Assembly (NCBI GenBank): GCA_003971905.1
Contig: RSEE01000049.1
Location: 62,001-126,000, forward strand
DNA: 64,000 nucleotides
DNA from: Moniliella sp. 'wahieum'
Lineage: Eukaryota
Direction of reading: 5' to 3'
Of this stretch, positions 4,767 through 58,969 are shown piece after piece (the first letter of the stretch is position 1; each line of letters opens with the position of its first letter). The translations under genes were made by a program, and so were the position numbers. A model generated the notes under the pieces. It saw only the letters and a program-made list of their open reading frames with translations. It was not told where the DNA came from and did not search any database.

Positions 4767-5405
4767 TCCAACGTACTTCGGCGTCTTCAACCTCCAACGT
4801 CAATGTTTTCAACGCCCAAGCGACGTTGAGATCTAGATGCGTTGCTCACTAGTCACTAGTCACTAGTCACTTGGTAGTAAAATCCCCTAAAAATCCGGCC
4901 CACCTTGGACTCTTGCCTCCCGTTTTGTGGGAAAACATTTGGTCATGCGATTCGCCTTGCTGCTTAATTAGCTCAATTTGACTGCTTATAGCGCTTATGC
5001 CACCGCTTCTCCACACTCGCTCTCCGCAGTACTCGGTCGCCCTCGGCTCAGTCACTAGTCAGGCCTCAGGATAAACTACAGCTGTGTGGCCTAACAGGCT
5101 GAACCCCAAAGCAGTAGGAGACTAGTCACCATCTGACGTCTCATGTCAATAACTGTTTCAGGTCCTATGGCAAGTTTCGGGCCTCCCCGTCCCAACCGCG
5201 AAAACCTGTGTCGAGTGCGGCTAATATGCCACCGACGACAACGAGGTCTAAGACCCCAGGCTAGCTGGAGCGTCACATGTCACATGGCACAGGCCTCACG
5301 GTGCCAATCCATTGCAAGTGCGCCCACAATCTGCCGTGGGAGACCTCTATACCCGGTGACCGGTTGGTTGACCACGGCAAAAAATACACATTTTGGAGCA
5401 TGCAC

Positions 5406-5560
5406 GTCGGCTCGCTACTACCACAGAATGTGAGCACTGAACGTCGTATGGGACTAAGAAGCTCTGCGACTGACTCGTCCAGAAGACTGGTGCGAGCTCG
5501 AAGGAATGAATCTGACTCACGTGACTCAGGGTCCGCGCGGTCCTAGGACGGATGTCAACA
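5406..5560. mobile_element. Solo LTR, family A copy 2 (TSD TGCAC)
   Basis: Near-identical to 4610-4766 and ends TCAACA. TGCAC lies at 5401-5405 and 5561-5565. The first T of the TG terminus is missing (mutation or sequencing deletion). Confidence 0.8.
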
Positions 5561-8500
5561 TGCACGTGATACCGGTGATATATGATGCCGCGGTGACATT
5601 GTGACAAAACGCGTTGCGACGCGTTGAACCGTGAATCGTTAAACGGGAAGGCCTAAGGCTAAGGATTGAACTCTGCCTCCGCTTCTTGTTTGTGGCTGAC
5701 GTGCGCATAGGGCAGTGGGCTGGAGGCCCCTCGTAGGCCTAGCCTTAGGACTTAGGTACTAAGTGCGCACCCAAGGGACGTGTGTTGGCCAAAGGCTGAG
5801 CGGCTGAACGCGCGCTGAGGGCTGGGCTCCCAACATCAGCGACACTTGAAGCTTGACTTCCGTGGCGGCGGTGACCGGTGAACGGTGAAAATTGAAGTGG
5901 TGCCAATGTATCGAGCTCAACGTCAACACATACCCCGATGGCAGATCTCAGATCATCGATCATCGATCATTTTCATGCACCTCACCGACCATCTCAATCA
6001 CCATGCCTCCATACTCACGCAATGCCACGCACCGATCACCGGACGGATCACACACCAATCACCGGATGGGTCACACACTGGGTGCTGTAGAACAGCGATG
6101 CAGGCCATACCAAACCCCACAAAACATTCCCATTGCATGATGTGGACACCCCGAGTAGTACTAGTACTAGTATAGCGGTGCGCACCTGCTTTGCCCCAAA
6201 CAAGAACCCAGCAATCGCACTTTCCTTGCCAATCCGTTCACGGCCTGAGCGCCTGAGCGCTGAGCGTCTGAGCAAGATCAGGAGGCACTGACCTCAAGTA
6301 CCGCATTGGGCCTGAAGCTCAGACCCTGAAGCCTTAGCTGAGCTCAGCGCTGCGCAGGCTGAAGCTTGAAGCTTGCAGTGACTGCTGAGACGCTGAGGTC
6401 TGGGCTCGGGCGTACCTAACAGGTACAACGGATGTACCGTGGTCTACGTCAGAACAATTCTGTTCCTCGCACTCTCCATCCGACATGCGTCATGCATCAT
6501 GATCCTGTACTAAAAGCGCGGCCGTGTGTGGGGCTTGGGGGCAAACAAGGGGGGTACCTTGGGGAACTGAGCGGGGGGACCTACTGAGGAAACTTGTGCG
6601 GGCGCCCCGTTCCGCCTCTGTTCCGCACCTTCCTTTTTGCCCTCCGGCTGCCTTCGCCTGGTTGCATCCACACCACCTCATCCCCGGCCTTGCTCGCCTG
6701 CCACTGCCCCAAGACTCCATTGGGGCATCTGGGCTCAGTGGGGCCCCCTTGATTTTACGTTTAAACGTTTAACGTGTTAACCCTCTCCATAACGTGTAAC
6801 AAGCAAGATGGGCCCATTTCTTCAACCGTGCCTGGAGCCCTGATTGATGGGAGAGTGGGATCAATTCGATCAATGATGCTGTGAGATGATCGATGATCGA
6901 TGTCAGATAGATATTAGATCCACGGATGGCCAATGTCAATGGTCGAAGCGCCAAGCGCCAAGCTTCAAGAGCGAAGCTTAAGCATCCGTGTTGCCCACTC
7001 GACATCGATCACATGTATCCGTACTCGTGCTTCAGACGCCTGGCGAGCCACCAAACGGATTCTGCGTAACCGCATAACCGGGGCATAACCGGGCTAAGCG
7101 CATGGCCGCATAACCGGTAACAACCGACGGGGCGGACGTAGCCCACATAACTGGTAACTGAAACATTGCACCCGCTGACCGGCCTAAGGCCTAACGGCTT
7201 ATTAACGGCCTAACCGGCTAACCAGTACTCGGCTCTCTCTGTCCCTTTATTGTTGGTTGTTTTGCGCAAGATGGGCACTCGAACTTGAAGCTTGAAGCCA
7301 TTCGACGAATCTTCATCATGAGATTGCGATCAGGTTCATTGCCGAGTATACCGCGTACACCGTTGCAACCTGCTGTCACGGGGCGATGCGCAGCACAGCC
7401 ACGGAAATATTTCCGTTGGCGCCGCCGCTGCTTATCGTTCGCTCTGGCTTCTAATCAGTTCGATCGCCGATGTTCCGCGCGTGCAGATCGGCGGGAGCCA
7501 TCAGCCGCTGGTCTCCAACAGACCACAGTCAGGCCGCTTGCCTATTGACGACTTGCGGGCCTTTGCCTGCCTATATAAAGACCCGCTCTGTACTAAGAAT
7601 GCATGGAGGCAAGCGACCAATCGTCTTGTCCTGCGTCCACCCTCAGCGCCGCCTTCTCCAGGACTCAGCTTAGGAACGCTATCGCTAGGAAGGCAGAGGG
7701 GAGGACGCCTCTTGGGTACGAAGCTCGTGCTTCGGGCCTACGACTGTCCCCTTGCCTGACGAGCCAGAGGGCAGGCTCCCCTTTGTGGCCCCGTCGGGCG
7801 AGGTTGTCATCGCCCGGGAGGCCACAACCTTACACCTGCCGAGATATGTCTTCCTCTGTTGTATATATAACCTCACTTTGAGGACTTAATTGCATCCCGC
7901 GAGGTGACACATGTGTGTGCATAATGTGCATGTGATATGAGGGGCCACAGGCAGTACCAAAGAAGAGAAGATATCCTGAAGTACCTGGAGCATTTGAAGT
8001 TGCGCGTGAGCGAGACCCGTGACGCGTGACCCGTCAATGAACGTCGCCCAGGCCCATTGCGAGTATACGCCCCAGTGCCCCCCTGGCTCACGCATAGGGA
8101 TTCATATTCCTAGCGAAGGGGGCAATAGAAGCTGTGTGAATATGGAGCTTGAAAAATGGCCGTAGTGCTCAAGCTTCCAAGTATCGACCTTCAGGCGGGT
8201 CAGGAGGTCTCAGGGATTCAAGCTCCATTAAGCTTCAGGGCAGCAGAGTGTCGTTAGAGCTTTAGACCTTCAACAACAGCAGACTTCAAGCTTCAGACCT
8301 TCAGAGCTAACCTCAGACCTCAGCGCCCTAGTACAAGCAACACGTTCTAAACCATTTGTCGCGTGGGCCAAGACCGCCATGGACCAACCAAAAAGCAAAC
8401 GGGAAGAAACGAGTAGGTACTAGTAAGACGAAAAAGCTACGCGTAACTAGGTATGACACTGTGGTGTTTGACGTGCGGCGCAAGTGGGATGTTCGTTGCG

Positions 8501-10979
8501 CACTAGGCACTAGGCATTAGGCGTGGCCGCGCCGAAAACAAGTCCGAGCCGAAACAGAGATGCGGGAGGGTCTTCGGAACATGTCACTCGCTCGTCACTG
8601 GCTCTACCTCCGCGGTAGTGACTCGTGACTAATAGTGACTAGTGACTAGCGCCTACGAGTGAGTAGTGACTCCCGGCCCGACTGGATGTGACAGCTGTGC
8701 TCCTTGTTGCAAAATCCAAGGCAGGCGGCTACAGGCAGCGTGTCATTGCATGACACAGCGACAAATATAGCGGCCAGAGGAACTAATAACGAGGGCCTCG
8801 CCTGCGTCACTTACACCAGAGTCAACAGGCTCTGCAGCTGAGAGTACTCGATTACTGGGTAGTAGTACACTGACATGCAACATGTGATACCTCAGCCTGC
8901 GCGCTCTGACTGGCTCGCCCCAGGTCCCACAGGCTACCCCAGGCACCTGCATGTGCGCGCGGGTGTGGGAGGGGAAAAAAAGACGGGCGGCTATACAAAC
9001 TCCCCCATCATGTTGGCTGGGGCGTACCGGATCGGAAATATATGGGATGGTGCGAGTGTAACATATTCGATCATCACGACGTCAACGTTCAACGTTCACA
9101 CGTCGCGTTCAACATCAGTAAAGCAAAACCACAGGGGGGGCATGAGAATAGGGATGGATTCCTAGGAACCATTATGCATTACAGTGTAGCCAAATGGTCA
9201 TTCCTACTCTTCTTGTACTAAATGTTGACTACTAGCACGTCTGGAGAATATTCCGTCTCTACGGGGTTAGTAGTTTCCAACATCGTTTCCTACCCCCACA
9301 GACCTCACATGTTCAGTGCTGGCTCATGCATCATGCATCATGATCTGCCAACTATCGCCACCGGCAACTACGGCATCTCTCGCGGCAGGAACAATGTACA
9401 TGTAACGTGCAGTCAGGTACCCCATCACGACCTCTTTCCAGTTTGGCACATCCCCGTGAGTAACATATACCACCTCAGGCCTCATCCCGGGGTTAGTAGC
9501 GTGGGGGGGGGGGGGGGCAAAGATGGGAAGAGGTCTCTCGATGATAATTAATGGGCAACGGGAAATGACCAGTAGACTAGCCATAGAGAGGTGAACGTTG
9601 AACGGATGAACACGGTGAGCGGGGCGAGCGTTCGGATCTCAGAGCGCTCAGAAGAGCCGAAGTGTATGAGAGTGGGCCCATACTATTTTCGACCTGTGTG
9701 CGTTACAGAGGTTTCGGGTGACGGCTCCGCAGACAAGACCCCAGGCCTCAATATTATTCAATCCAGTCGACAGAGTGAAATCATTTCTATTAGTAGCGCC
9801 GCGCCAGTGCTAGTGACGCGTGACGCGCCGCCGCATTCGGCTGGGCCGACCGCCCCCCAGTTTGGGTCTTGGCAGAATACTTCCCTGAAAGTTGTGGCAC
9901 GTGAGAAGCTATATATACCTGGGGTCTCCACACCCATGAGAAGCTGCATCGGCTGCTCAAGCAGACTAATGACGGATTGCGAGAAAATTCCGAGTATCAA
10001 CAGGGACGCCCTCCTATGATCTGTTCCTCTCTCTCTGTTGACCAGGGTGACAAGCAAGATGAGGACACTCCGCCACCAAAATTGCTAACAGAAGAAGTAG
10101 AACAGATGAAAAGACATATGGCTGATAGCAGAGTCATAGTATTACGTTGGAGAGAGGACTGTTGAACACACGTTGAACTTTGTGCTCGCTCTTATGTTCA
10201 CTAGCCACCGCACCTGCATCTAAATCCACTCCCACGCTACACCCAATTGAGAGGGAATCGAAAGGAGCCGACAATAGACGAACCTGTCCTACTCTTGCAA
10301 TGGCTTTCTGGCTTCCTAATTGGGTGGGCACACGAGCTGTGGAAGCAAACGCCGTACTGCGCCAAAGCCTGGTCGGGAACGTTTATTGTGTCCCTCTGCG
10401 CACAGTATTTTTGATGCAAATGCTATAGGAATCCTAGCACAGCAGTACATAAACCACAGCCCAAATGTCGTCCTTTCGTATCCCTTCTGCTAGTCCCCTC
10501 TGCTCTCCTAGTACAGTAGTACTCAGTTCCAAGTTCGGCACCACCACTGCCCCATCCTCCATCATCAGCACAAAACATAAAGAGCAACATTACGATATGC
10601 CTCTGGTCATTCCCAACAAGATCTTCTTCTCAGATGACGAGTCGGGGCAAACCCTTTTTTCGTTCACTTCTTTCCTTCATCTCTCTTAAAATGTCTTTGG
10701 ATACATAGTTACTGTGGGGACATGACGCTCGTAAGAGCTGTCTCCATCTTCTGATGCCCTGTATTACACATGTCACCGCGAGCGATGTCCAGCATGGGTC
10801 CAATGTCCACATTGGTCTTGTCGATGGCTATGTTGTGTTGTACATTTTTGTGTAGGCTTGTTTATATGATACAACGGCACCAAGACAGCGGGCAAGATGC
10901 TGGCGCATTGGAAGAAGGATTTGACTACTGAATCTCAATGGAAGTGGTTCCTCACTCGGATGTCTACTACGTTCATCCG

Positions 10980-11160
10980 TGTCCACACGCGCTACTTCGG
11001 GTATGGGACCGGATGGCGAGCACCACAGGATCCTGATATCCTGGCGACCCCCCTGGTTCGCTAGCAGTGGTGGCGCTACGAAGTAACACTCGCAAGATCA
11101 ACGGGTCGGCTTAGGCGTAGCGTTTCCCTGTCCCACCCTTAAGCTCTACTGTCAATGATA
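10980..11160. repeat. Dispersed repeat family B copy 1 (possible degenerate solo LTR)
   Basis: Aligns by eye with 34611-34798 (shared blocks TGTCCACAC, TCCTGATATCCTGGCGA, CGCAAGATSAACGGGTCGG, CGTAGCGTTTCCC, CCTTAAGCTCT, CTGTCAATGA). Confidence 0.7.
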
Positions 11161-12888
11161 TTAATGCAGTATTAATCTTCGTCTTCGTAGATTCTGTTCC
11201 ATTCCAATGATGTCTACTACTTCCTTAGTAGGTACATGTAAGAGGGAGATTGCTTCGGATGCACAGGTATTCATTCAGGCTGCATGGAATGGTGCTTTAT
11301 ATCAGAGGAGAAGGAGAAGCTATCACACGGTAGACCACGCGTGATGAGGGAAAGAGACACAAAAGGGGGCAAGGAAGATCTAGAACAAGGATCATACCCA
11401 CATCCTGTGGGAATGTGTGTGTGATCCGTCATAACAGAGCTGCTTGTGTTCCCATGGGCTTTCTTTTGCCTATATGATATTGTGACGATATAGAGACTCG
11501 CTTCTCTCATTGTGGCCTCCACAGGGGATTGCTACTGTTTTTAGAGGCACAGTACCTGGGGCGACAACAATTGTGTATTATATGTTAGAGGAGAAGCACT
11601 ATACCGCATCCTGGAAAAAGAGGGGGTCGCCTCTTTTCCTGGTTCTGGCAGGCAAAATCGTTGTACTATTTATGTATGAAACGGTCAATGCGTGTCACCT
11701 CTTCAATTGTTTTCTCGTGTGGAAATGGTATTATAGAAAGGCAGACAGACGGGGTCTACTACACGGGTTACTGCCTTATTATATGTTGACCGTGCTTTTC
11801 ATTGTCCTCTATTGTGTTTTCCTTTCTCCTCCAGTGTTCCCCCTACGTTCGACACTATGCTTCGTCACTTTTACTATCAGCTATCAGACGTTCACCGTGT
11901 GCTTGGGGTCAGCTCCTTAGCTCTTTCAATCCGTCGGGGCAACTACTTTCGGTCAGTTGGTCGCGGCACTAAAACCAACAGCAGTGATATGATTGGACCA
12001 AGCAAGAACCCTAAGTTGGCTTAATCCGAGAGAGGTGCAAAAGATGATCCGCTATTTGCAGATGAGTAACGAGGATCATACTCGTATATCGCATCCAAAG
12101 CCTATACGCTATGCGGACCAGACCCGAGTTTTTTATTGTGGGGGAGAGGGATGAGACAGAGGCATCAGCTGGTCTGAGTTCCATCACCAGCTTGCTCGCT
12201 CTCAACACCATGCCATTAAGTTCACTGGTGTCATTGGTCATGTCCAAATGTCGATAGAGCTGATGGTCTATGAGTCGAAGACAGGGGAAAAAGAGAGTTG
12301 CAGAAAGATCGGTGGAAAATGTCCAGCCCAGATCCCCCCTCCCCGGGCATAACCCGTCATAGGTTTGCTCGGGATCGATAGATTGATGAAAAAAGCAATG
12401 CACACCTATTAATAGCACCAGATGCATTCTGTTGCGCCTTTGAACCCATCCTTCACGACAACAGCTTCACTCAGGTTCTATGCTCGAAGTGATGGGGGCG
12501 GAGTCCGAGAAATCCTACTGTCTGGAGTGGAGTACACGCAAACTTTTTGAGTGAGCAGCTGGGCGACTCATTTTTGTCTTTGTGGGGGTGTCTCCTATAC
12601 ACTAATCTGATGGACCACCATTAATACTTCCCCCCGGGCCATGCCACATGACTGTTGGGAAGATGGGCCTCGTATCTGTCTGAATATGCATTTGGGTCTG
12701 TGTCCGCTCTGATACGTTCAGTGGTAACATCGCACCACTATTGTGCCCTCCAAAAGCCCTATCCTTCCAAAGAAGAAGGGGGGGTGCATACTAGTAGCAA
12801 CAAAACTATAATGGTGAGAGGTGATATGCAATACAGTCGGTTATCCCTTCTATACATTACCACGAGCCACTGTTGGGCTCACAGCACG

Positions 12889-12954
12889 CGCCCGCTGCTC
12901 GCTGCCACTTCCTCATAGCCCCGCCCGCTGCTCGCTGCCACTTCCTCATAGCCC
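12889..12954. repeat. Perfect 33-bp tandem duplication
   Basis: CGCCCGCTGCTCGCTGCCACTTCCTCATAGCCC occurs twice in tandem. Confidence 0.9.
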
Positions 12955-13430
12955 CACGATGCGTGCTATATGGAACAGACGCCCGCCAAACGAAGGTGCT
13001 TGAATTCTCGTTACATGAGTAGGATCAGGAGATGCACGTGGTGCACACAGGGCCCAGTCTTGAGAGGACGGTTAGGAAGCAGAGAACGAAGGGGGGAAGG
13101 TCAAAGATGAAAGGATTAAAGGGACTCATGACAGGCCGGCCATGAAAGTGGTGACGAAAAACCAACAAAAATGCAGAAAGGAAAGACGAAAGCGAGAGAT
13201 CACGGGCAGCTGTGCTTGCACAGCACAAAAAACCAACGTCGTGGAGTCAGGCTCAGGCGAGTAGAGAGACATACCATATCATAAGGAAACAGGTGCTGTA
13301 CTAGCATGGACAGGTAAGTAGGGTAAGCAAAAGGACAGTGGTGTTAGGCTAGCGAGGAGAAGGTGGGCGCCGGGTGGGAAGACGGCCAAAGGGGCGGCCC
13401 ACGGCGCCAGAGGAGGAAGCATCGCCAGAG

Positions 13431-14074
13431 TTAGGGGCACGGTGAGACGGCCGCATGCCGCGGAAGGAGTAGGCGGACGAGACAGACGAGAGGGAGAGGA
13501 GGAAAGGGAAGCGCCGATTGTGATGAGGGGAGGGAAGGCGTCAGCGTCTCGGTCGACGAAGGGGCCAGAGCGGGGCGACAGATCAGCGGCGAGACGGACA
13601 TGGACAAGATGGTGTCCAGGCGTCGCTCAGCCTGCGCCATGGTGGTCGGGGAGACATAAGTGCCCATCACCCAGTCCACCCACGGACTGAGACCCATCGA
13701 ATAATTGAATGCTGCACTTGCTGGGCGACACAGATGTAAGGCTGGCAGAGGAGGGCGTGGGACGATGATGTGCAAGAAGGGCAGATCGGACCAGGACATG
13801 GCCACCACACCCGCTCCCGCCGCCATAGCATTGAAGAATGCCGACTCATATACGTGGAGGCCCAGGGCGGTGGACACCAAACAACACCCGAGGGCTTCGC
13901 GAATCAACATGTCGAAGATGGAGGCGTACCCTGTTTCCCATGTGGTGCGGATGACGGACGTAGGAGATGGAGACTCGGGTAGAGAGGGGAGTGTGTAGAC
14001 AATGTTGGGATAAGAAGAGTGCTGATGGCTGGTGGGCTGTACGTTGTACTGGCATTGGAAGTGGTTGAGACTGG
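13431..14074 (-). CDS. Possible hypothetical (membrane?) protein
   Basis: GC-rich overlapping ORFs 13846-14145 and 13431-13910 give a protein-like hydrophobic stretch (TTWETGYASIFDMLIREALGCCLVSTALGLHVYESAFFNAMAAGAGVVAMSWSDLPFLH). No family recognised. Confidence 0.3.
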
Positions 14075-15138
14075 GGTCGGGTTGCTAGGATCGGGAAAGG
14101 AGTGGTATCGCTCGTGGAAGGTGTCAAAGAGAAATGTGTTGGCATGCCACAGCCGGTGAATCAGGTATTGCCACACGTCCAGAAGCAGCCTGTCATGCGC
14201 ATCTCAAATGTCAGCGGACACTCAACAAACGTTTTGCAGCTGTATGCGATAGACACGCACCAGGCAAGAAGCAGGCGCATAAGTGTAAGGTGCACTGGCG
14301 ACGAGTTAGGCGAAGCAGAATCTGCCGCTGCCAAGCTATCGTGGTCGCAGCATGCGAGCTGGATCAGCGCCCGCAGCGCCTGGGTGACGACCACGCGTAC
14401 CCTCCTGACGATCTCATCGTCTTCGGCTGGCGTGGCGGGGAGACGGCATGTGCCCGACCGGCCACATTTTGCTGGACGATAACACGACAGCCCAGTGGAC
14501 GGCCACAGGCGCAATGACGCAGATGGCTCGAGGTGCAAGCATCGTACAAGCAGTCAATGCCTGTGGTGGTGGCGGTGGTGTGGCGGCTCGGGGGCATGTG
14601 GCCCTCCTCGACTAGGCGCATACAGTGGTGACCGGGAACCACCTTCGAGCCAACACCTGCATCCGGCGCCACCCAGTATGGCGCCAGTGTGGTGCACTAG
14701 GGTTAACCCGACCTCGCCCTCAAGCTTCACCTGAAGTTGAGGCAAGAGGGTTGGAAGGGTAACTGGGCCGGACGCAACAACACTGTCAAAGGCTAAAGAA
14801 AAAAACACCAATGCCTGCTGGTGTCGCTTCCTCTTCCTACGACCGCGTCGTGTTCCAGGCCGCAGAAAAGGAGCGATGGGTTCATAGGTAGGTGCTGCAG
14901 AGACGGCCATGCTGCTTTCTACCCCCGCCATATGTGGGGTGCAGACCAGCCCTGGCAGGCTACGGGGAGCCTTCGGCAGATGGGCGAACACCTAACGCGG
15001 CCAGAGGCAAATAGCAAGATAGCAGAAAGTTCAATACAGAGTTCAGATGAGAATCAATGCTGTGTACATGAAGATGAGCAAGGCGGCGGAGCAGGCTGGG
15101 GTGCGAGGCAGTAGAAAGAAGTCGAGTCTGGTTGCGGA

Positions 15139-16816
15139 TCAAAGGTACTTCCCCCACCTTGCGCGGAGAACGAGGAGCAGCGCAGTGGCCGCCAAGGTGA
15201 CCAGTCCGGCAAGGGAGAAAGAGGTGGCGTAGCAGCTGCGGCCCAGACGACAGATGGCGTCTTGGCCGGCCTTCGCATCGGAGACAGTGGCATAGAGCAT
15301 ACAGAAGGCAAAGGAACCCAACGCGCAGGCGTAGGACAGCAGCCCCCACGACCGGCCAAAGGTGGACAAGCCAAAGGCAGAGGCTACAGTAGAGGAGACA
15401 AGGGTAAAGGTGGCCCCATATAGGAAGCCCACTGCCCCTGCAAGCACCATCAGACCACGCAGCGTTGTGAGCCCTACAGCAGCCAGCGCAAAAACTTGCT
15501 CCCATTCCGCCGGTGGCCCACATGAGGAGGGTGACTCTGGATATGCGGACGTTGCGGATGTAGGTCTTCCACCTAGCAATGTACGTGACTGGGGGTTCGC
15601 TCTCCTCCACCGCCCGTGCCGGACTGACGGCATCGGCCCGCGAGCCCACAACAAAGCGAGAGAGTGTTGGTAATTGCGAGGCAAGATGGCACGGGAGCGC
15701 CAGCGCAGCTCGCCGCGCGCCACGTCAGGGACATCAGCAAAGTCCACCGACGGCAGGGTGGTATGATAGAGAGCAGCCACCATGGAGCCGGCATTGGACA
15801 TTAGCATTTCCCCTACCCCGACAGCGGTGAGGAGGATGACGGCGAGGATCCAGAGAGGGGGCTTTGGCAAAATCTGTTAGGGACTCGGAGTGAGGGGTGA
15901 GCATAGATGTAGAAGAACGGATGCTCCATCCACTTGCGGCCGCCTGTTCCTCTCCGTTTTCGATGGCCTCCACGTCAACTGGCAACCCATGAGGCGCGAT
16001 GACGGCAACGCTCGCTGACTCATCCAGAGTGGGCACAGGCGCAGGGAAAAGTGGAGTGCGCTCGCTGGCATCCTGGTCGGCGGGGGCGGGGGCCTGGTGC
16101 GCTGCGGCCTGGGCGCGGCCTGGTGTTGTTTGTGCGCACTCCTTGGCCATGCACCTGGGTGGCCATCTGTCGTCTACGGCGGGGGTAGAAGGAAAGCCCC
16201 ATGCACCCATGCCGTTGCACGCCGCAAGCAGTACTGCAAGGAAAGAGAGAAAGCGGGCGGAATCGAGGTCGCCTGTGTTGGGATCGACAAAAAGTATTCC
16301 CAGTGCAGTGAGAAACATGGAGCTCAAACTAAACAGCGTGAGGGGCAGCGCTAGCGCCAAGCCGGGATGCTTGGGCCAAACGCGAGTGGCAGCCGTCAAA
16401 GAACCGAAGTAGGATGCGCCAACGCCAGCACCGACCAGGGCAAAGCAGGCCCGAGCCATACAGTGGGAAATGGAGAATGGGAGCGCCGCTGGGAGGTCGG
16501 CGCTGGCGGAGGAGCGCTGGGCCATGAGGCCGTACCCAATGCCAAACAAAGGCACGCGCCCAGGCTAAGCGGGGCAGGACCATATGAGTCCGCTAATGCT
16601 CCCCATGCGGCGGCACTGAGGTACTGCCCCAGAACGGCAGCTGACCAAAGAATGTGGTTTGTTTGAGGTCCAGCGCAAAGTCGGCCATGAGAGAGGGCCC
16701 AATGAGCGGAAGCAGAACATGCTCCCAGCGTCAGAGCATTGGTGGCGACACACAATACCACTAGAGCGCCGGGCGCGGCTTTGCTGACGCCCAAGCGATC
16801 GCACGTCGTCGGCCAT
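15139..16816 (-). CDS. MCH1: Mch1-like / nodulin-like MFS transporter
   Basis: Stitched ORFs 16396-16830, 15734-16555 and 15139-15870. Motifs: WGALADSYGP, LVGAGVGASYFGSLTAATRVWPKHPGLALALPLTLFSLSS, GFLYGATFTLVSSTVASAFGLSTFGRSWG and the C-terminal C-x-x-G-x-x-CY-x-x-SF. Start codon assumed at MADDVRSL. Confidence 0.8.
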
Positions 16817-16844
16817 AGCGCAAGAAGCAAGTAGAATGCGGGCG

Positions 16845-48582: not shown

Positions 48583-48925
48583 TGGGACGGGTGTTGGTGG
48601 CGGGGGAAGGAGGGGGGAGAACGCCAAGGCCGGACGAAGATCAACGCTATGGAGGCAAGAATGGGCTGCTGCCCAAACCAACTGACGGTACTGAAGAGTC
48701 GCCGGAAGCCTGGCCAGCTCGACTGCTGCTGGGCGCCGTCGAGAGACAAAGCGGGAGCGCGGGGGTGGCAAGCGACAGGCAGAAGGCGGGAGACTGGCCC
48801 TCTGCCAGCGTCCGAACGGACGGACGACGGGCGGGAGAGGTGGCGCGTGCGAAACTGCCTGGGCGGCAGCAGGCGAGGAGGCAGGATATACGTTTTGTAT
48901 GTGGTGGCAGCCCAGCCGTAGGTTA

Positions 48926-48947: not shown

Positions 48948-50069
48948 GATCCAGCACGCCTGTCTCACTCCCACCAGCAGTCGCCACCGGCCACACTGCC
49001 GCCGTGCCCCACCCGCCGACCCGCCGCCCGTCCCGCATCGAGCATCCCCGTCCCCCGTCCAACGCCAGTCAGGCCTCAGGCCTCAGGGCACTGCACAGAG
49101 TTATATATACCGACAGAGCGCATTAGTATGAACTCTCCTTTTTGCCTGGTCCCGTAGTCGGGGGCAGAGAGGAGAGCCACACCACACCAGCCACCCCCTT
49201 CGCTCTTCGGCAGGGCTCTGCGCAGTAAGGTACGAGAACCGCAGCCGTCGTGGGTGTGGTGCTTTTATACATGGACACTTTTGTTGGTGTGTGGAGCACC
49301 GCACTTGGGGTTGGAGCTTCACATGCTTGTCACAGTCACATGTTACAGCCAACCTGATCGACCCCCTGGACACCAGAGACCTGCGACTGGTGACCGGCTG
49401 TGACATGTGACATGTGACATGTGACCTATGACGAGGAGGAAAACAATCATAAAAGCGAAACGTGATCACCGTAAGTTTTTTTGAACGTTGAACCAAGAAT
49501 GAGATGGGGGTGCGGACGATCGCGAGAGGGGGGTGAGCGACATGCTTCGGCCCACGAACGAGGGGGACGGTGCAGTTGAGGGAGGGGAGGCAGCTAGTCA
49601 GGCGTCATGCGCAGGCGGGTGACCCGGTGACGTGGCGAGGGCGAGAAGGCGGGACTGCCGCGGTGCGTGCGGCAAGGGGGTGGGGGGGCGTGCGTGTGCG
49701 TGTGACATGTGAATGTAAGGGGAGGGCGGGGCGGCGGGGGCGGGGCGGAAGCGGCGGCGGATTCCGCGCGGGCGCGTGTGACATGGGCGCATGGGCCAGA
49801 GCGTGGAGGGCTACACTAGTCAGCATTTCGCCAGCCCATCGCAAGGAGTAAGGAGCCATCAGCCATCGGCATCCCTCAGCCAGCAGCCGCCCGCCGCTCG
49901 CTTCCACGCCCGTCCCCTCCACGCCCGTCCCCGCGCCCACTCTCTGGCTGCGCTCAGCCTTCTCGCTGCCGCTGCTGCCTCTGCTTGCGCTGCCTTCACT
50001 CCCGCCGCCTCCACTCCCGCTGCCTCGCCGCTGCCATGCCACTGCCTCCACTCCGCCGCTGCCTCCGCC

Positions 50070-52878
50070 ATGGGCTCGGCCAGCGCACCGGCCACCCCCG
50101 CCGGCCACCCGTCCGCTTCCTTGGCCGCACCCCGCCCCCACTGCCCAACCGCCGCCCCCTCCCCGCCGCCGCCCCCGCTCTCCTCCCTCGCCGGCATCTC
50201 CCCCCGCCTGCTCCCCCAGCGCCGCAAGGGCTCCCATGCCGCCTCCCGCTCCCAGCCCGACTCCTCCGCACCAGCCGCCCCGCCAGCTCCACCTCTCTCG
50301 ACGACGCGCCCCCACTCCGCCAGCTCGCCCGCATCCAGCACACCCGCCGCCGACACCCAGCTGGTCCGTGTCCTGGACGATGCGACGGGCGAGGTGGTCG
50401 ACCTGCAGCTGGACCGCTCCGAGGCCTACCCGCGCCTCGCCCCGCACGCTATCCGCCCCGCCTCGCCCTTCGCATCCCCCGCCCGAGGAGGAGCAGGCGG
50501 CCTGGATCCCGCGCCTCGACGTGCTCAGCCGGCTGCAGAAGCTGCGCGCCAGCAGCGCCACTCCGGCCGACGACTCGCGCGATCCCAGCTCTCCTCCAGC
50601 CAACCCGTCCAGCCCGCCGCCGCGGAGGAGGAAACCGAAGAGCTGGTCCCACCGCCCCGCGCCCAGTCTGCGCCGTACAACCCCGTCCACCTGCCCAATC
50701 GCACCTCCACCTCCGACTCGGCTAGCACCATTGCCCACGCCTCCTCCTCGCGCCCAGTCTCCGGGCCAGCACTTCCTCCTCTCTCTGCGCGCGCTCTCCT
50801 ATCTCGCCCCTTGGGCTGGAACCCGTTCCACCCGCCGCATTTCGGAGGCAGCTCCATCCCAACTTCCTTCTCCGCTCCCGAACCTCCCTGGCAACCAGTG
50901 ATCGTTCCCACCCGCCCACCCGCTCAACGGGGCGGCTGCCCAGTTGGTCGTCCAGCCCCTCCGGGCGCAAGTCAGGGCCGCCTGTCCCCTATTATTGGCT
51001 CGGCCAATCCTGTCTCGCCACCGCCGAGGTACATACCGGCGACGCCTCTTTTGACCAGGAAGCAAACGCTAATGCGCAGCGCATGTACCGCGCTCGACGT
51101 GGGCGGAAAGAAGAAGCGCGAGATCCGGGGGCAAGGGCCAACTGATCGATGCTGGGCATGCAAATTATGTGCTGATGTACCACATGCTGCTGACGGGGAT
51201 TCGTATTGCCGTATCTCGCGCACAGCACCGCCCCCGCGCCCCCGCTTGACCGAGAACGATTTCGCTCCCAGCATAAGTTTACCTTTGACATTGTGGGCAA
51301 CGAGTTGGAGCCAGGAAGGCGCAGTATGCGTTGCGTTCAAGGATTATGCGGGCCCGATCTTTCGCTCGTTGCGGGAACACTTTAAGTTGGACACGGCGGA
51401 TTATCTGTTGAGTTTGACAAGCAAGTACCTCCTCTCGGAGCTTGGATCGCCGGGCAAGAGCGGGTCCTTCTTCTACTACTCGGGTGATTATCGATTCATC
51501 ATCAAGACCATCCGCCGGTGGAACATACATTTCTACTTTCCATCTTACCTGCCTACCACGAGCATGTGGAGCACAACCCAAACACGCTGCTCAGCCGCTT
51601 TTATGGCCTGCACCGGGTCAAGCTCCCGGGCGGGAAAAAGTGCATTTCGTCGTGATGAACAATCTCTTCCCCCCGCACATGGACATTCACGAGACGTACG
51701 ACCTTAAGGCTCCACTGCCGGGCGCGAATTCCCAGAGGAGACGCTCAAGGAAAGAAAGGCGGGCCTGGGGCAATGGGGGTGGTAATGAAGGACTTGAACT
51801 GGTTACGACGTGGGCGGAAGATCCTTCTTCCCGAGGCCAAGCGCCAAGCGTTTGAGGCGCAACTGAGACGGGATGTGGCGCTGTTGTCACGTTTACGGAT
51901 CATGGACTATTCCCTGTTGATTGGCATCCACGATTTGCAGCGGGGCAACAAGGAAAATCTACGTCAAGAAGGGTTGCACCTGTTCCAGGCGGATGCCCGC
52001 ACGCCACGACCGCTCCGGATGGCTGTGACACGGTCGGACCCTACTCGCTGAGTTACACGGGAGCCGACCTGCGCCACAACATTCTACAGCGAAGAAGGCG
52101 GCACCCGGTCCGTCGGCGGCGGCGAGATCTACTTTATGGGCTCATCGATCTCTTTACTTCGTACAACTCGATCAAACGCGGCGAGCACCTGTACAAGACA
52201 GTGACCACCCCAGATTCCACCTCCATCTCCGCATTGCCTCCGGCCGCGTACGCCCAACGTTTCCTCGCTTTCATTCTCACTGCCACCGACCCTCAGGCCG
52301 AATGGACACGGCCCCCTTCCTGGCCCTTGTTGCTACCCAGCTTCAGGAACACGCAGCACACCTCGCCTCCCATGCTCTCCTCCCATCAACCTACACCTAC
52401 CATGTCCCTCGCTTCCTCTCGCGTCCATCGCACCCGCCAGGCCTACCGATTCTTCCACGCCCACCCACTCCGATCGGGATCCCAGTCCCAACTCCAATCC
52501 CAATCCAATTCCAACCCCAATCCCCTCTCGATCCCAATCCCTCCCCATCCCAACCCCGATTCCAATTTCCAGCCCAATTCCCAGCCCAATCAACTACCTA
52601 CACCTACCGCGCGGCACGCGACCTCGATCACGATCGCTTGGCCCGGCCCGGTCGCTCTGGACAAGTTAGTTTCCTCCACATCTCTTGCCCCTTGCTCCTT
52701 GCCCCTTGCTCCCTTGCCCCTTGTCCCTTCCTTGCCATCCATTTTTGTTGCTCGCGGTGTGCGGCTCGTTAACGGCGGTACGCGGTACCGGTTCATTCGC
52801 ACCGGCTCGGAACTCTTCTCTCTCCTTGCCCCTTTCCCACGGGTCGCGTGCTGCGTGACATGGACATGTGACATATGA
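50070..52878 (+). CDS. MSS4: Phosphatidylinositol-4-phosphate 5-kinase (Mss4/Its3-like)
   Basis: Motifs: FKDYAGPIFRSLREHFKLDTADYLLSLTSKYLLSELGSPGKSGSFFYYSGDYRFIIKTI, PNTLLSRFYGLHRVK, HFVVMNNLFPPH..IHETYDLK, VMKDLNW, IMDYSLLIGIHD, ISALPPAAYAQRFLAFI. The kinase domain ends near 52280. Start and stop positions are uncertain. Confidence 0.9.
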
Positions 52879-55028
52879 CATTATTTCATCTCTAAGTAAG
52901 GACTAGGTACTTGGTTCGCCTCATGATCATCGTCCCCTACTGGTGAGTGGGACGCACATATACATCCACCATCCATACAACTATTCTTCTGCATTGAGCA
53001 TCCCTCCCCCCCTCCTACTGCTATACTGCGCGCTCGCGGCGATGAGCGGGAAGGTGGTGGTGGCTAGCCTAGGAATCTAGGTTTGCAGGTGTGCTTGCGG
53101 GGTTCCAGATTCTGGTGTAGTCTCAATAAGGCCATAGGACATGGGTGCACGGTGAAGTTCCAGCGACGCACAGGCCAAATCAATGGATTGATTATTGATT
53201 GAATCGCAGGACTACTGACAGGTGAGGGTAGGTGACCCCAAGTCACCCAATCGTGGATCTAGTACTAGCATCTGCTGCGGAGGCAAAGGCAATGCAACAG
53301 GCCCGTTGCACCGACCCTGCGCCTCAGCCTGCAGCCAACCTGGGGCCCCAGCTGGGGCCCAGCTGTGCGCTCGGACCGCCCGACCTCCCTCCCTCCCAAA
53401 GCGGAGGGGCCGTTGAACATTGCAAACCCACCCCTGTGGCTTCCGCGGGCTGATCGATGATCCGTGATGGGTGCTCCGTGACGCGTGACGTCGGAATATC
53501 TCAGATCTCAAGTGCCGGTCTCAGTACCTCAGTTCAAGGTTGCAATTTCAGTTCTGCGTTTCTCTCGCCACATGCCCTGGTCGACTGGCTGGCTGGCGGG
53601 CGCGGATAGCGGTCGCCGCTCAGGCTGAGCGCAGACGGAAACGCCGTGCCATTAGCGTTTGGCATTCCACGTCTACCAACCAGCTTCGCCCGACGGGTGC
53701 GTGCTTCGGAGAAGCCGTGGGGGGCGGCGCAGAAGAAGCTACTCTGTGGCGGAGGAGGACGCGCTTGCCACTTGGCTCTGAGCACTTGGCTCTGGGCGTG
53801 TACCGTGTACCGCCACCACGTCCGAGTGAGACGTGGGTCGCGAAGAGAGACAGGGTGGTATACTGTGGTGACGGGGCTGATGCAGCATTGGTGGCATGGC
53901 AAGCTTTCGTTGGGTGGCTCACTTTGGTGACCGTATCTCGCTACGAGCCACCACCGATGGAAGGTCCGCTAGCTTCCTTACTCATACGTTCCTCCCCCTC
54001 CCTCTGCGACGAATGGAGAGAAGGAGGGGGGAAGGCGAGCAGAGCAGGGGAAGGTATATACTCTTCTACCAGTGGGTTTATATCATGTTGCCAGAGCAGA
54101 GCCTTTGTCTCTCATATACAATCCCTTTGGCCTCCAGCCTTTGTCTCTTCCTCAGACGAGCCTTTGTCTCCTTCCCCCTTTTTGGCCCCTTTCCTAACCT
54201 GCTCTTCGTACCTTAACAATATGGCCTCGATCGTACGTCCCTTGTCCATCTCACATCTCATGCCGCGCTAGCCTGGGCGAGGCAAAAGAGAAACGGAAGC
54301 TGACTGAACAGGTGCCTCACTTGCCTCACATCTCACACCGTATTCTCATTAGATCGATTCGGTTTTCTGCCCTTCCTGTGGCACCTCTACCCCTTCTTCG
54401 GTACCGTGGACCGTCCATTGCTCCATTTGCTACAAATGCTTTGGTTCTGCGTAGCCTTCCACCACTCGAAGCCCCCCCACTGTCATGGTCACGGTCATTA
54501 GCCACCCGAACAACAGCCCCGAGCCACGGATCTCACAAGTCGCACCGGTCTCACGGCTCTCTCACGAGCTATATACGTCGGGACGGCATGACAACGTCGG
54601 ACGACCGAGATGGGGAGAACAAAGAGGCAACACGCAACACGCAACACGCAACAAAAAAGATCCCAAAGGGTCTCTCTAAGTCACTAGTCAGGGTTGCATA
54701 TGGTTGTACTATTATCTTTCTTTCTTTGTTACGGTTTTGAAGGGGTACACGGTTTATACCCATTTGCAACTACCATGCTGTGCTGTTACGCGTACAGTCA
54801 CCATGCCCTCCCCTCTCGCCCTCTCCATCTCATCTGTCCCCGCGCGCGATTGAATGCGGTGGATCAATCTGGTGTATGTGTTTAGCAATGTACTCTAGTG
54901 GCCTTGGAGCGGAAAAGGAAAAGGAAAAGGAAAAGTGTACATCTCTCGTGAATTCATACACGTTACCGATTCAGGCTGGGACAACAAGCGAAATCCTATA
55001 AGCCAATATATATTATACGAGGAGGACC

Positions 55029-55295: not shown

Positions 55296-56297
55296 AGCCT
55301 TTTTTGGAGGAATCTTATGAAGTAGAGATATCAGGCTCGCTCATTCTCAAGAGCGTGTGCGGTAATTGCTCGTACCACTCACACTGGTTCCTACTAACAC
55401 CCACAGGCCACATAGACCAGGACGCGATTCTCCAGTAGTATCCATCCGTCCCCCATGGACCCAATATGTTCGATCCAATGTCATTGTACGCAAAATATCG
55501 GGGCTTGTGGGAAACCCGAAGAGCGCCCAGAGAGAAGGACGGTACCCTGGGGCAAACCCCGATAATCGGAGACTTTGGGAAGGGCAGGCTGAGATGCACG
55601 TGGGCCACGCCACTGGCCAGGGCGAGCACCACTGCAGATGGAGGCCTATATTCAAAAGATCTGATACTGTTCCACGCCACACAATATATGCTTCAAAGGA
55701 AAGGGATGGACGACACAAAACAACCATCACAGTCCTCTCAGTAATTCTATAGAAATCGACTCAGGTTGTGACTATTACAGGCTCACCGATCCGTGCCAAG
55801 CCCCGTGCGTATACGGACCACTGCCACGTCCATCGTTACACACATTGTGATCCCGGCCGCGTCATGTTGGATGAACAGTGACCAAAGGTATATATTAATC
55901 GGCCCGCTCGAGCCTTCTCTCTTCTTCCCCCTACTAATAACACATCTTGTTTCTGAGATAAGCCATATACGCACTGCACCATCTACTACTATTACATACG
56001 ATTCCAGTTTCTTGACCGTCATTAAGGTGTCTATCCCGGTAGGGGGGAAGGAATAATGATGGCCACACACGCGGTCTTGGCCAGCCTGCGGCGCCGGCTT
56101 TAATTGGCAGCGGGCGCGGTCAGCGAGCCTTTTTGCTTGACCTTCAATATTGACTCTCCTGGCTGGCTCGTGAGCTGCTACCTGACTGGACTGGACGGGG
56201 TCCGACGGGTTTCTGTGGGTTGAGCATAAAACGTACAACAGCGAAAATGGTCTGGCGGTGATGCTGATGATGATTGGTTTCGTCACTGAGAAAAAAG

Positions 56298-56383
56298 TGG
56301 GTACGCCCGGGATTGAACCGAGGACCTCTTCCAAGATGAGAATTGCACCCAAAGGAAGCATGATACCACTACACCACGTACCC
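56298..56383 (-). tRNA. tRNA-Pro(TGG) with 14-nt intron
   Basis: Acceptor GGGTACG/CGTACCC, anticodon stem CTTCC/GGAAG, loop TT-TGG-G|T, GGTTCAATCC and a downstream T6. Confidence 0.92.
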
Positions 56384-57196: not shown

Positions 57197-57692
57197 CGGG
57201 GAAGCGTGGGTTAGGGGGTAGGGTTAAGGGTTAGGGGTTGGCGCCATGGCTGTGTGTGTGCCCCAATGCGGTTCGGCCCGCCTGTTCTCCTGCCCCTTGG
57301 GCCTTGGGCCTGGGCCTTGGGCCATCAGCGCTGCTCCGTGGTCTGGCGCACCCTCTGTCCTACCGAGTCCCACCCCCTGCTCATTGCAATCCAATCCGTT
57401 GGCAAGAGGCCACTACGTACATAGGGAGGCAAGACCATCGAACAGACCTGAGAGAAGGCGATGCTAGCCATATTCCGGCACGCCGTCACGCGTCACATGC
57501 CAAGAGTACATAAAAGTGGGAGGATGCATCCAAGGGGAAAGGGGAGGGAGAAAGAATGGGATGAAGGGATAGGAGGGACGGGGGGATGGCAGAGCCGCGA
57601 GTTCCCGGACAGAGACATCGAAGGGTGTGTATGGGTAGGGGAAGGTGAAGGTGGGGGGGGGAGGATCAGAGTGGGACAAAATGGATCATGGA

Positions 57693-58969
57693 TCAAGATT
57701 GGGCGCACTGGACCTGCGGTCCCGCGCCACCATCTTCGTCCTCATCCATGTCAACGTCACCGTTGGTCGCCCTGGCATTCCGTTCCTCCCGTTCGTCCAT
57801 TTTCTCCATGACCACAGGCTCGAGGTCAATGTCATTGCCCACCTTTTCCGGCGCAATACGAGGCGGCAGCGCCTTGTCCAAAAACGCAATCTTGTCTTCC
57901 GGGATCGAGTCGGGGAAGGTGACCGATACGTTGACGTACAGGTCGCCCATCTCGTGGTGTCGGTACGAAGGCATGCCCTGCCCACGCAACACCTTGGTCT
58001 CCCCGGGTTTCACCACCTCCCCGCGCGGGATCTCAATTGCCAACGCATGGTCATCCAGATGGGGAATGTTGATCTGTCCACCACCGAGGGCGGTGAGGAG
58101 GTCAATTTGCACATCGGTCATGAGGTCGTTCTTTCTCCGCTTGAAGCGGGGGTGAGGCTTCTCTTCCACCACAATCACCACGTCGCCCGGGATGGTGTTG
58201 GGAGCTTGGTCTGCTTCCTCTTTGAAAGTGATCTGTTGACCATCTTCCATGCCCTTGTCGATTCGCACCTCGAGCACCTTACGCTCCTGCGTAACCTTTT
58301 TGCCATTGCACACCTTGCACTTGTTCTTGGGGTCAATCTGCTCGCCTGTGCCTTGACAGTCGGGGCAGGTCTGCTGCAGCTGTTGGATCATCGGGCCCAT
58401 CTGGCGCATGACAAACTTGACTCCTTGTCCGTGGCAGCCGGGCAAGACTGGACCGCGCCCTCCTTGCCGCCCAGGCCGTGGCAAGCATGGCAAATGACGT
58501 GCTTCTGCAACGCCAGCTTGGTCGTCTTGCCATTGTATAATTCCTCGAGGGTGACCTTGACGCGATGCACCAAGTCTTTGCCCTTTCGTGGGCCCTGCGG
58601 CCGGCCTGATCCAGCACCAAACATGCCGCCACGACCACCAAAGAGCTGGGAGAAGAGGTCGGGGGCCATGCCGCCCATGCCGCGCCGCCGTCCTGAGACC
58701 CTGCTCGCCAAAGCGGTCGTAGAGGTCGCGCTTGTCGGGGTCGGACAGGACGTCGTAGGCAGAGGTGATCTCTTTGAACAGCTCGGGGTCACGCCCTTGT
58801 CCGGGTGGGCAGAGAGGGCCTTTTTGCGGTAGGCCTTCTTGAGCTCGGCCTCGGACGCGCCGGGAGCGACACCGAGAATGTCGTACAGTTTGGTTTCCCT
58901 GCAGGCGGGTGTCAGTACTCAGTACTCAGTGGCGCATGCGGAGGAAGGAGGAGGGACTCACTTGGCCAT
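57693..58969 (-). CDS. YDJ1: Type I Hsp40 / DnaJ (Ydj1/Mas5-like), farnesylated
   Basis: [26 protein letters not shown]-domain, G/F region, four CxxCxGxG repeats, [17 protein letters not shown] and a C-terminal CaaX (CAQS). Intron 58899-58961. Confidence 0.95.

Follow-up and report, generated by a model that had tools for sequence, protein, structure and literature searches.

Palindromic 7-bp insertions at T-N-A sites in non-coding DNA of a Moniliella contig, possible footprints of hairpin-type DNA transposition

Here, we analysed a 64-kb stretch of DNA from Moniliella sp. 'wahieum' (contig RSEE01000049.1, positions 62,001-126,000, forward strand; referred to below as the window, with coordinates counted from its first base), in which short palindromic arrays with a period of 7 bp recur outside coding exons. 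The window comes from the nuclear genome of a member of the Ustilaginomycotina. No exact match to two of its ORF translations was found in the protein collection. Its ammonium transporter gene (47002-48771, minus strand) shows at most 74% identity to Tilletiaria anomala and Violaceomyces palustris in the top rows of the best 120 of 1838 matches, and the basidiomycete host implied by an initial annotation, made from the sequence alone, was thus correct. Apart from this transporter, the genes supported by Pfam encode two MFS/sugar transporters, an FKBP, a KH protein, a GT90 glycosyltransferase, an MFS protein, an HLH protein, PIP5K, DnaJ and an ABC transporter. As a proxy for coding DNA we used a codon log-odds score trained on eight Pfam-supported open reading frames (ORFs), by which 38% of the window is coding-like. 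Gene orientations were taken from the Pfam hits and, for two genes, from the codon score only, and results by class of intergenic interval are therefore provisional. In the following, T-S-A stands for TCA or TGA, T-W-A for TTA or TAA, and x' and y' are the complements of x and y. Each of the loci described below is best read as the scar of one stereotyped 7-bp insertion at T-N-A, made once or repeatedly.

Perfect tandem arrays of at least two copies numbered 78, 59, 59, 7 and 15 in the window for periods of 5, 6, 7, 8 and 9 bp, respectively. Against these 59 arrays of period 7, Markov chains of order 1, 3 and 5 produced 3.7-4.4 on average and never more than 11 in 40 simulations per order. In 30 of the 59 arrays the unit is a palindromic hexamer plus one base, a class for which the simulations gave 0.4-0.7 arrays (maximum 2); the hexamer has the form A-N4-T in 29 of the 30, and in 27 a C or G completes the heptamer. 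The palindrome rule is not followed by the other 29, which are still several times the Markov expectation of about 4 arrays of any kind. Examples of non-palindromic arrays are GCAACAC x3.9 (54627-54653), GACAGAA x9.6 (26602-26665), CTTGCCC x6.4 (52684-52729) and TGCATGG x3.4 (38445-38468).

The same period stands out when no array is presupposed. Self-matches of 6-mers in non-coding-like DNA reach 311 at lag 7, against about 30-100 at other lags. At this lag the pairs TCA..TCA (49) and TGA..TGA (66) are abundant, compared with about 15 at other lags, and the 4-nt spacer between the two anchors is palindromic in 37 of the 49 TCA pairs and 32 of the 66 TGA pairs; when all 64 trinucleotide anchors were compared, every other anchor had at most 5 pairs with a palindromic spacer. 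Mixed anchors are at background, both in non-coding-like DNA at lag 7 (TCA..TGA 7, TGA..TCA 9) and, with a palindromic spacer, across the window (4 observed, 2.2-4.7 simulated). Counted over the whole window, T-S-A followed by a palindromic 4-mer and an identical T-S-A gives 73 overlapping 10-mers, against 1.7 and 4.5 in Markov simulations of order 3 and 5 (30 each), and these 10-mers merge into 60 loci with a total length of 875 bp. Outside the perfect arrays, identity at lag 7 is 0.273, with about 0.26-0.27 at other lags. Beyond the loci, both A-N4-T hexamers and T-S-A with a palindromic 4-mer behind it are still enriched about 1.4-fold (205 against 141-151 expected), which is compatible with decayed older scars.

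The initial annotation had described this pattern as a window-wide lattice of TCA or TGA spaced by palindromic 4-mers, and each of the 16 strings that it quoted was found in place (16/16). The T-S-A/palindrome arrangement at 7 bp is real; however, it forms the 60 discrete loci rather than a window-wide lattice, and both anchors are used, but one anchor is kept per locus. The excess over the Markov background that it proposed to measure exists both for period 7 and for palindromic spacers, and with palindromic spacers the lags of 6, 8 and 9 remain near background. Its claim that all 16 palindromic 4-mers serve as spacers also held: 15 of them show the full 12-nt signature defined below at one locus or more, and only TATA is limited to 11 nt.

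The unit event is TSAxy -> TSAxy + y'x' + TSAxy, that is, a 5-nt direct repeat enclosing a 2-nt inverted copy of its own end. The resulting 12-nt form occurs 83 times on the two strands, whereas simulations of the same design as for the 10-mers gave 0.17 (order 3) and 0.83 (order 5) instances. When the filler between the two TSAxy repeats was varied, only that of 2 nt was enriched (3, 5, 83, 0 and 1 instances for palindromic fillers of 0, 1, 2, 3 and 4 nt). Among 108 cases of TSAxy-NN-TSAxy, the filler is y'x' in 83, one substitution away from it in 18, the mirror form S'A in 4 and something else in 3. The 12-nt form is shared almost equally between TGA (42) and TCA (41), every other anchor carrying at most 4, and it is present in full at 50 of the 60 loci. 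These 60 loci have C or G in the middle of T-N-A, and 7 further ones have A or T; T-W-A sites obey the same rule, and the per-site rate at T-S-A is 3.6-fold higher than at T-W-A (p = 4e-4).

The ends of the arrays are informative as to how the unit was made. The perfect lag-7 run of each locus was extended as far as possible, and loci were classed by how many bases of it precede the first anchor and follow the last. The classes (0,2) and (2,0) together comprise 19 loci, (1,1) none, (2,2) one, and (1,2) with (2,1) seven. Arrays of 12 nt (13 loci) and 13 nt (11 loci) are the most frequent, and most lengths equal 5 modulo 7. If the three possible two-base extensions of a 10-nt core were equiprobable, a split of 19 to 0 would be expected with a chance of (2/3)^19 = 4.5e-4. 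Since the ends are phased in this way, plain slippage and a simple 7-bp duplication both fail to explain the arrays, and the phased ends together with the lengths of 5 modulo 7 lead to the unit event given above. Of 43 oriented loci, 11 have a base upstream of the first anchor that agrees with the palindrome, a proportion at chance level and as predicted by a model with an untouched flank. Moreover, the spacer is templated by the local flank, and thus every palindromic 4-mer can occur. Its first two bases track the background composition after T-S-A fairly well, with the exceptions of AG, which is over-represented (14 against 4.3 expected), and of AT-only pairs, which are deficient.

Either flank of an anchor can be used, as mirror images. 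At 5050-5070 the site AG|TCA|GG was hit once per side, AGTCA-CT-AGTCA overlapping TCAGG-CC-TCAGG: the left-type event occupies 5050-5061 (TCA x2, spacer CTAG, 12 nt) and the right-type event 5059-5070 (TCA x2, spacer GGCC, 12 nt), with one TCA common to both. Orientation is random (29 TCA and 31 TGA loci). Two anchors are found at 50 loci, three at 7 and four at 3; about 73 events over 1345 non-coding sites would lead one to expect about 6-7 loci with at least three anchors, and 10 were observed, so that array growth fits random re-hits. The 12-nt minimal unit has a folding energy of 0 kcal/mol, and the largest arrays reach -2.2 to -4.1 kcal/mol.

Non-coding-like DNA holds 57 of the 60 loci, though coding-like DNA makes up 38% of the window (p = 4e-9), and no locus lies in a demonstrable coding sequence, which bears out the impression of the initial annotation that the arrays are absent from coding exons. 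The three loci in coding-like-scored DNA are a borderline case, one just upstream of the PIP5K ORF start and one in the first intron of the DnaJ gene. The latter, with spacer GTAC (58912-58930, TCA x3, 19 nt), had rightly been called intronic: the minus-strand DnaJ gene starts with ATG GCC AAG, which is followed by a short intron (gtgagt ... tgcag; 58931-58972), and the array ends in CTGAC, a branch-site-like sequence about 17 nt before the 3' splice site. Intervals between divergent genes contain 24 loci in 10.5 kb, and tandem, convergent and downstream intervals together 12 in 20.1 kb (p = 1.3e-4, with provisional gene models). This corresponds to about 3-fold enrichment in divergent promoter intervals; convergent intervals and an intron also carry loci. 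Overall, the density is about one scar per 0.7 kb of non-coding DNA, or about 60 per 64 kb. The densest stretch, 4045-9723, has 21 loci, and the adjacent 9828-13430 has none despite 115 T-S-A sites. Scar-free non-coding stretches (9828-13430, 33808-35345 and 21801-24300) have a lower G+C content (about 0.49-0.50) and many T-S-A sites, and lie downstream of genes.

The remaining loci are given here in the order of the window as anchor/spacer, without assignment to a strand (the strand entry is '.' for all loci). On the left side these are 4484-4498 (TGA/GGCC, 15 nt), the four-anchor array 4846-4871 (TCA x4/CTAG, 26 nt, ends phased (0,2)), 5272-5286 (TCA/CATG, 15 nt) and 5576-5586 (TGA/TATA, 11 nt), which is the weakest case and lacks the full 12-nt signature. 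They are followed by 5845-5856 (TGA/AGCT, 12 nt), 5869-5881 (TGA/CCGG, 13 nt), the three-anchor 5951-5970 (TCA x3/TCGA, 20 nt), 6253-6266 (TGA/GCGC, 14 nt), 6360-6375 (TGA/AGCT, 16 nt), 6490-6501 (TCA/TGCA, 12 nt), 6885-6902 (TGA/TCGA, 18 nt), 7284-7298 (TGA/AGCT, 15 nt), 8018-8030 (TGA/CGCG, 13 nt), 8284-8295 (TCA/AGCT, 12 nt) and 8633-8649 (TGA/CTAG, 17 nt). Two arrays of three anchors, 9082-9098 (TCA x3/ACGT, 17 nt) and 9324-9342 (TCA x3/TGCA, 19 nt), precede 9473-9484 (TCA/GGCC, 12 nt), 9592-9604 (TGA/ACGT, 13 nt) and 9813-9827 (TGA/CGCG, 15 nt).

Beyond the gap, two loci consist of the 10-nt core only, namely 14720-14729 (TCA/AGCT) and 17232-17241 (TGA/AGCT). The locus 17277-17287 (TGA/CCGG, 11 nt) lies within a degenerate GTGA run of period 7 (17263-17296), and 17505-17514 (TGA/CATG) is 10 nt long. 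Then come 17610-17630 (TCA x3/AGCT, 21 nt), 18158-18170 (TCA/AATT, 13 nt), 18953-18971 (TGA x3/CATG, 19 nt), 18991-19006 (TCA/TGCA, 16 nt), 19301-19312 (TGA/CCGG, 12 nt), 19321-19332 (TGA/AGCT, 12 nt) and 19688-19701 (TCA/CCGG, 14 nt). At 19808-19840 five TCA anchors stand in phase with spacers GCGA, CCGG, AGCT and CAAT, a lattice which includes the loci 19815-19824 and 19822-19831. Further on we find 24388-24398 (TGA/ACGT, 11 nt), 24930-24945 (TGA/AGCT, 16 nt), 25020-25031 (TGA/ATAT, 12 nt), 31758-31770 (TCA/TGCA, 13 nt) and 31869-31884 (TGA/AGCT, 16 nt).

The locus 38677-38714 (TCA/AGCT) belongs to an imperfect array of 5.3 copies, in which 38677-38696 and 38702-38714 are perfect, and sits about 30 bp downstream of a TATA-like run. 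A mixed lattice at 38908-38926 (TCA x3, spacers ACGT and then ATAT) can be explained by two events with one C-to-T change between them; it is followed by 38949-38964 (TCA/ACGT, 16 nt), 41089-41102 (TGA/TGCA, 14 nt), the four-anchor 41216-41241 (TCA x4/AGCT, 26 nt, ends phased (2,0)) and 42596-42613 (TGA/GCGC, 18 nt). The TGA lattice 46096-46152 has eight in-phase units, of which the first has spacer TTAA (12-nt signature at 46096-46107) and those after it CGCG, CGCA and TACA. This lattice, with spacers one base from palindromic, is overlapped by a tandem array, ATGACGC x7 (46104-46152). Another tandem repeat, GCATGACGT with 2.2 copies at 17200-17219, has the TGACG core of the ATGACGC array, and this core resembles bZIP/CRE-type sites.

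On the right side lie 49069-49087 (TCA x3/GGCC, 19 nt), the four-anchor 49399-49425 (TGA x4/CATG, 27 nt), 49481-49493 (TGA/ACGT, 13 nt) and 49701-49712 (TGA/CATG, 12 nt). A cluster at 53451-53510 is made of three loci, TGA/TCGA at 53451-53462, TGA/CGCG at 53477-53490 and TCA/GATC at 53498-53510, and the TGA phase is maintained over a 14-nt gap. The T-S-A loci end with 54679-54690 (TCA/CTAG, 12 nt), 57484-57496 (TCA/CGCG, 13 nt) and 59650-59662 (TGA/CTAG, 13 nt). Among the T-W-A variants, 9170-9181 (TTA/TGCA), 19641-19652 (TTA/CGCG) and 41363-41374 (TAA/TGCA), each of 12 nt, show the same one-sided signature as the T-S-A loci; the others are 755-764 (TTA/ACGT, 10 nt), 7111-7121 (TAA/CCGG, 11 nt), 7181-7194 (TAA/GGCC, 14 nt) and 31474-31489 (TTA/CTAG, 16 nt).

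Taken together, this grammar points to one precise process of DNA cutting and rejoining, apparently undescribed. The initial annotation had argued from the shared rule to one cause, and indeed the same grammar holds for every spacer type and on T-N-A anchors only. Of the causes it offered, a mutational or sequence-writing origin fits best, because the array ends are phased and the palindrome copies the adjacent flank. However, its version of such an origin, a gradual convergence on symmetric units through repeated strand switching or inversion repair, is not supported: 50 of 60 loci are single, already perfect events, and perfect 10-bp inverted duplications (mixed anchors) are not enriched.

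It is quite possible, and we tentatively favour this explanation, that the loci are scars of a 7-bp staggered cut centred on T-N-A and repaired via hairpin-capped ends, in the manner of transposon footprints. Under this scheme, a two-fold symmetric enzyme would cut with a 7-bp stagger centred on the middle base of T-N-A, and insertion of a DNA segment would create the 7-bp target duplication pqTSAxy...pqTSAxy. On later departure of the segment, the flanks would be sealed as hairpins, and opening of these 2 nt from the tip would give self-complementary 4-nt 3' overhangs (xyy'x' and q'p'pq). End joining would then fill one overhang and clip the other, leaving pqTSAxy + y'x' + TSAxy or its mirror image. 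The new T-N-A copies could be hit again, which would produce longer arrays with the same spacer, and a hit on the other flank would give mixed-spacer lattices. Open promoter-side DNA would be favoured as a target, and frameshifting scars would be purged from exons. Such a scheme predicts the product together with its mirror image, an untouched outer flank, any palindrome, homogeneous extension of arrays and equal use of C and G. A hairpin footprint requires a direct target repeat on both sides of the scar, and this was found (the 5-nt TSAxy at lag 7, 108 instances). A zero-spacer inverted copy of the flank beside a direct duplication is the hallmark of a hairpin end opened off centre, known as P nucleotides; at the joint it was found in 83 of 108 cases, with 18 more one substitution off.

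According to PMC5499845, hAT, Transib, MULE (Mutator-like) and RAG systems cleave via hairpins on flanking DNA. PMC5873905 describes the footprints of Ac/Ds in Candida albicans as deletions and P-nucleotide palindromes of 28 types, the two predominant types accounting for 53 of 128 clones. In classical hAT chemistry, according to the same paper, the palindromes are odd and have the complement of the flanking base at their centre. The loci in the window share with hairpin transposon footprints and with V(D)J P nucleotides the direct target duplication that flanks a zero-spacer inverted copy of the flank end, and a hairpin opened about 2 nt off its tip would account for the product. The differences from transposon footprints are that here one invariant product is seen, that the junction palindrome is even, and that about 60 scars occur with no element in 64 kb. 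Insertion preferences are alike as well: P, hAT, Mutator and mPing elements prefer non-coding or promoter DNA, as the loci here do. The target consensus of hAT elements is the 8-bp nTnnnnAn, while the duplication inferred here is of 7 bp and centred on T-N-A. Target duplications of 7 bp are recorded for Basidiomycota in PMC12730594, for the transposons hAT7 (Pucciniales) and Kyakuja (Laccaria). Both come from the phylum of the present fungus and duplicate as many bases as the model calls for, and the superfamily of hAT7 forms hairpins; however, the window has no homologue of either, the sections of PMC12730594 consulted do not mention them for Ustilaginomycotina, and a link with them would be inference only.

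Other systems resemble the loci in part. The canonical Tc1/mariner footprint, TA + CAG/CTG + TA, is likewise a stereotyped short quasi-palindromic heptamer scar whose central base is either member of a pair; its inner bases, though, come from fixed transposon ends, whereas here they are copied from the flank, all 16 palindromes occur and the anchor is T-N-A, not TA. The GC clusters of yeast mitochondria are, according to PMC4478555, mobile and palindromic, with a short duplicated target and tandem arrays. The likeness lies in a duplicated short target flanking a palindromic insert and in the presence of singles and tandem arrays; the clusters differ in being organellar, 30-40 nt long and of defined sequence, as against a nuclear 4-nt palindrome with no fixed sequence. 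Heptanucleotide microsatellites share the head-to-tail 7-bp units, the 2-4 copies and the location in non-coding DNA, but here the unit is constrained (T-N-A plus palindrome), the ends are phased and single events dominate. Replitrons and the palindromic microsatellites of Fusarium mitochondria were also considered and are unrelated. A description of such arrays was not found in the full-text literature searched, as far as its accessible sections go; nor did searches naming Ustilago turn up the heptamer repeats that the initial annotation had mentioned for this genus.

Several observations weigh against a transposon as the source of the scars. No T-S-A-flanked terminal inverted repeats of at least 8 nt within 2 kb of each other were found in the window, and none of its 101 scanned ORF translations (13 + 79 + 9) contains a transposase or nuclease Pfam domain. 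Dispersed repeats are almost absent (18 self-hits in the window). The scar density is, to our knowledge, far above anything known for transposon footprints. The spectrum of variable joints typical of Ac/Ds assays is not seen here, where one product dominates, and by-products are missing from the window: TSA-pal4-pal4-TSA occurs 0 times, TSATSA with 46 instances is close to the simulated 42-45, and lags 6, 8 and 9 stay near background. An even junction palindrome differs from the odd one of hAT elements, the rule covers the lattices 19808-19840 and 46098-46152 only if further substitutions are assumed, and the spacer AGCT is over-used (14 against 4.3 expected). Because no element is found, the product is uniform, the palindrome is even and the density is high, a transposon-free enzyme or repair pathway is a serious rival. 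Here the same insertion would be written by an endogenous or domesticated T-N-A nuclease or nickase with fill-in and hairpin or turn-around synthesis, or by a template switch in replication or repair, the latter exploiting the near self-complementarity of T-N-A. We regard this route as unlikely but worth keeping in view. Besides the missing transposon and transposase and the very high scar density, it gains from the fact that a single product without by-products looks enzymatically fixed rather than like an end-joining outcome, and from the anchor being an odd palindrome with C and G equally frequent at its centre (29 and 31). Nicking enzymes combined with strand-displacing polymerases are known to yield tandem palindromic repeats containing the nick site in vitro. 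On the other hand, we could not derive the product from one break unless a target duplication came in between; if a stagger of 3, 5 or 7 nt were simply filled in, TSATSA, R5R5 (a directly repeated TSAxy) or (2,2) arrays would be expected, none of which is enriched; and turn-around synthesis predicts mixed-anchor perfect 10-bp palindromes, which are at background. The most far-reaching reading is of an undescribed endogenous sequence-writing activity in a lineage of Ustilaginomycotina. A symmetric enzyme would act at T-N-A in open promoter DNA and, at about 5% of the available sites, write a palindromic heptamer templated by the flank, always with the one precise product and without any mobile element. 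This is conceivable, and we hold it to be somewhat improbable.

A doubtful alternative is that the loci are selected cis-elements, with a protein or chromatin component reading TCA or TGA at 7-bp spacing in promoters, as in the binding lattice proposed by the initial annotation. It would account for the 3-fold enrichment in divergent promoter intervals, for anchors kept while spacers differ in the lattices 19808-19840, 46098-46152 and 53451-53490, for the array about 30 bp downstream of a TATA-like run and for the over-representation of AGCT. However, the promoter-side bias exists without a fixed recognition sequence: three bases are constant and the 16 spacers are roughly at the post-anchor background, orientation is random, 50 of 60 loci have only two anchors, and loci are also present in an intron and between convergent genes. 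Moreover, phased, repair-like ends and a spacer that is an inverted copy of the next two bases have no binding rationale. Ordinary heptanucleotide microsatellites, in which chance proto-repeats grow by slippage and hairpin-forming palindromic units are favoured, are a very improbable source, and slippage as origin is largely refuted. The 59 perfect period-7 arrays do consist of head-to-tail tandem copies, nearly half of them (29) being non-palindromic where about 4 arrays of any kind are expected, and three-anchor arrays fold to 5-bp stems with a TCA triloop (-2.9 to -3.9 kcal/mol). Yet the commonest class, the single event of 12-13 nt, cannot fold (0 kcal/mol) and has less than one instance expected by chance; the ends are phased (19 loci against 0 in class (1,1)), only T-N-A serves as anchor, and palindromic-filler periods of 6, 8 and 9 are absent. 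Hexamers closed by G..C would fold better, yet only 1 of 30 palindromic units has an outer pair other than A..T. Least probable by far is an artefact of assembly, polishing or basecalling. Long homopolymer runs suggest a long-read assembly, but the units are diverse in sequence and each is templated by its own flank, and no known error mode avoids coding DNA and clusters by intergenic class.

Several more specific mechanisms were tried and rejected. A perfect inverted duplication is contradicted by mixed anchors at background. A simple 7-bp tandem duplication predicts arrays of at least 14 nt and class (2,2), which has only one locus, and decay from class (2,2) predicts (1,2) to be about as frequent as (0,2), whereas 7 and 19 loci were observed. 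Tc1-like footprints made of transposon end bases do not agree with 16 spacer types and a trailing xy that matches the flank. A 3-bp T-N-A duplication of the PIF/Harbinger type, combined with P nucleotides, should leave either S-A-T-S' palindromes or a precisely excised site. For an asymmetric 5-bp duplication with P nucleotides from either hairpin, the mirror filler S'A is too rare (4 of 108). Slippage driven by hairpins was rejected because the minimal unit does not fold.

If the grammar holds genome-wide, it would be a clean mutational signature (fixed site, fixed length, flank-templated palindrome) through which one machine could be identified from sequence. Extrapolated from 60 loci per 64 kb, scars would number on the order of 10^4 in a genome of about 20 Mb. 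Either no denser record of transposon visits would be known from a fungus, or a new DNA-writing enzyme would be indicated, and the scars would supply dated, countable events for the study of hairpin repair in basidiomycetes. Moreover, the origin of a class of heptanucleotide repeats would be explained, and the bulk creation of symmetric hexamers in promoters would be shown to be possible. Were the transposon-free writer the true cause, promoters would keep gaining palindromic hexamers of the form A-N4-T, at which dimeric regulators might bind, and the lineage would possess a built-in generator of cis-regulatory novelty.

Three pairs of repeats, 4611-4774/5406-5567 (93% identity), 10999-11158/34640-34796 (84%) and 41453-41554/41606-41702 (81%), are the only dispersed repeats in non-coding DNA of the window, and no 7-bp indel was found between the aligned paralogous copies of these three pairs. 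Rfam and tRNA scans of the window returned nothing related to the heptamer arrays. Two tRNA genes of 87-99 nt, probably containing introns, were placed by Rfam at 31154-31252 and 34207-34293; ARAGORN in bacterial mode disagrees with Rfam and places tRNAs at 23346-23429 and 56297-56383. The homopolymer-type runs are a G-rich run of 36 nt with 82% purity (982-1017), C18 (4347-4364) and G15 (9503-9517), which are unusual for intergenic DNA at 57% G+C and may trouble an assembler. At 16845-17082 there is a 20-bp tandem repeat with consensus TGATGAGCTTGCCGTCAACT, present in 11.8 copies with 78% matches. It borders, on the upstream side, a coding-like region of the minus strand that is uncharacterised (13431-16564), and it may be coding or regulatory. 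Acidic low-complexity coding repeats occur at 44611-45793 and 25754-26185, with units GGAGCT, GAGTCC/GTCCGA and GAG/AGA; they are long, and sit in an ORF that has no Pfam hit and towards the N terminus of the FKBP gene product. Finally, two copies of AGGGTTA (= TTAAGGG), a telomere-like heptamer, are found at an internal position, 57220-57233.

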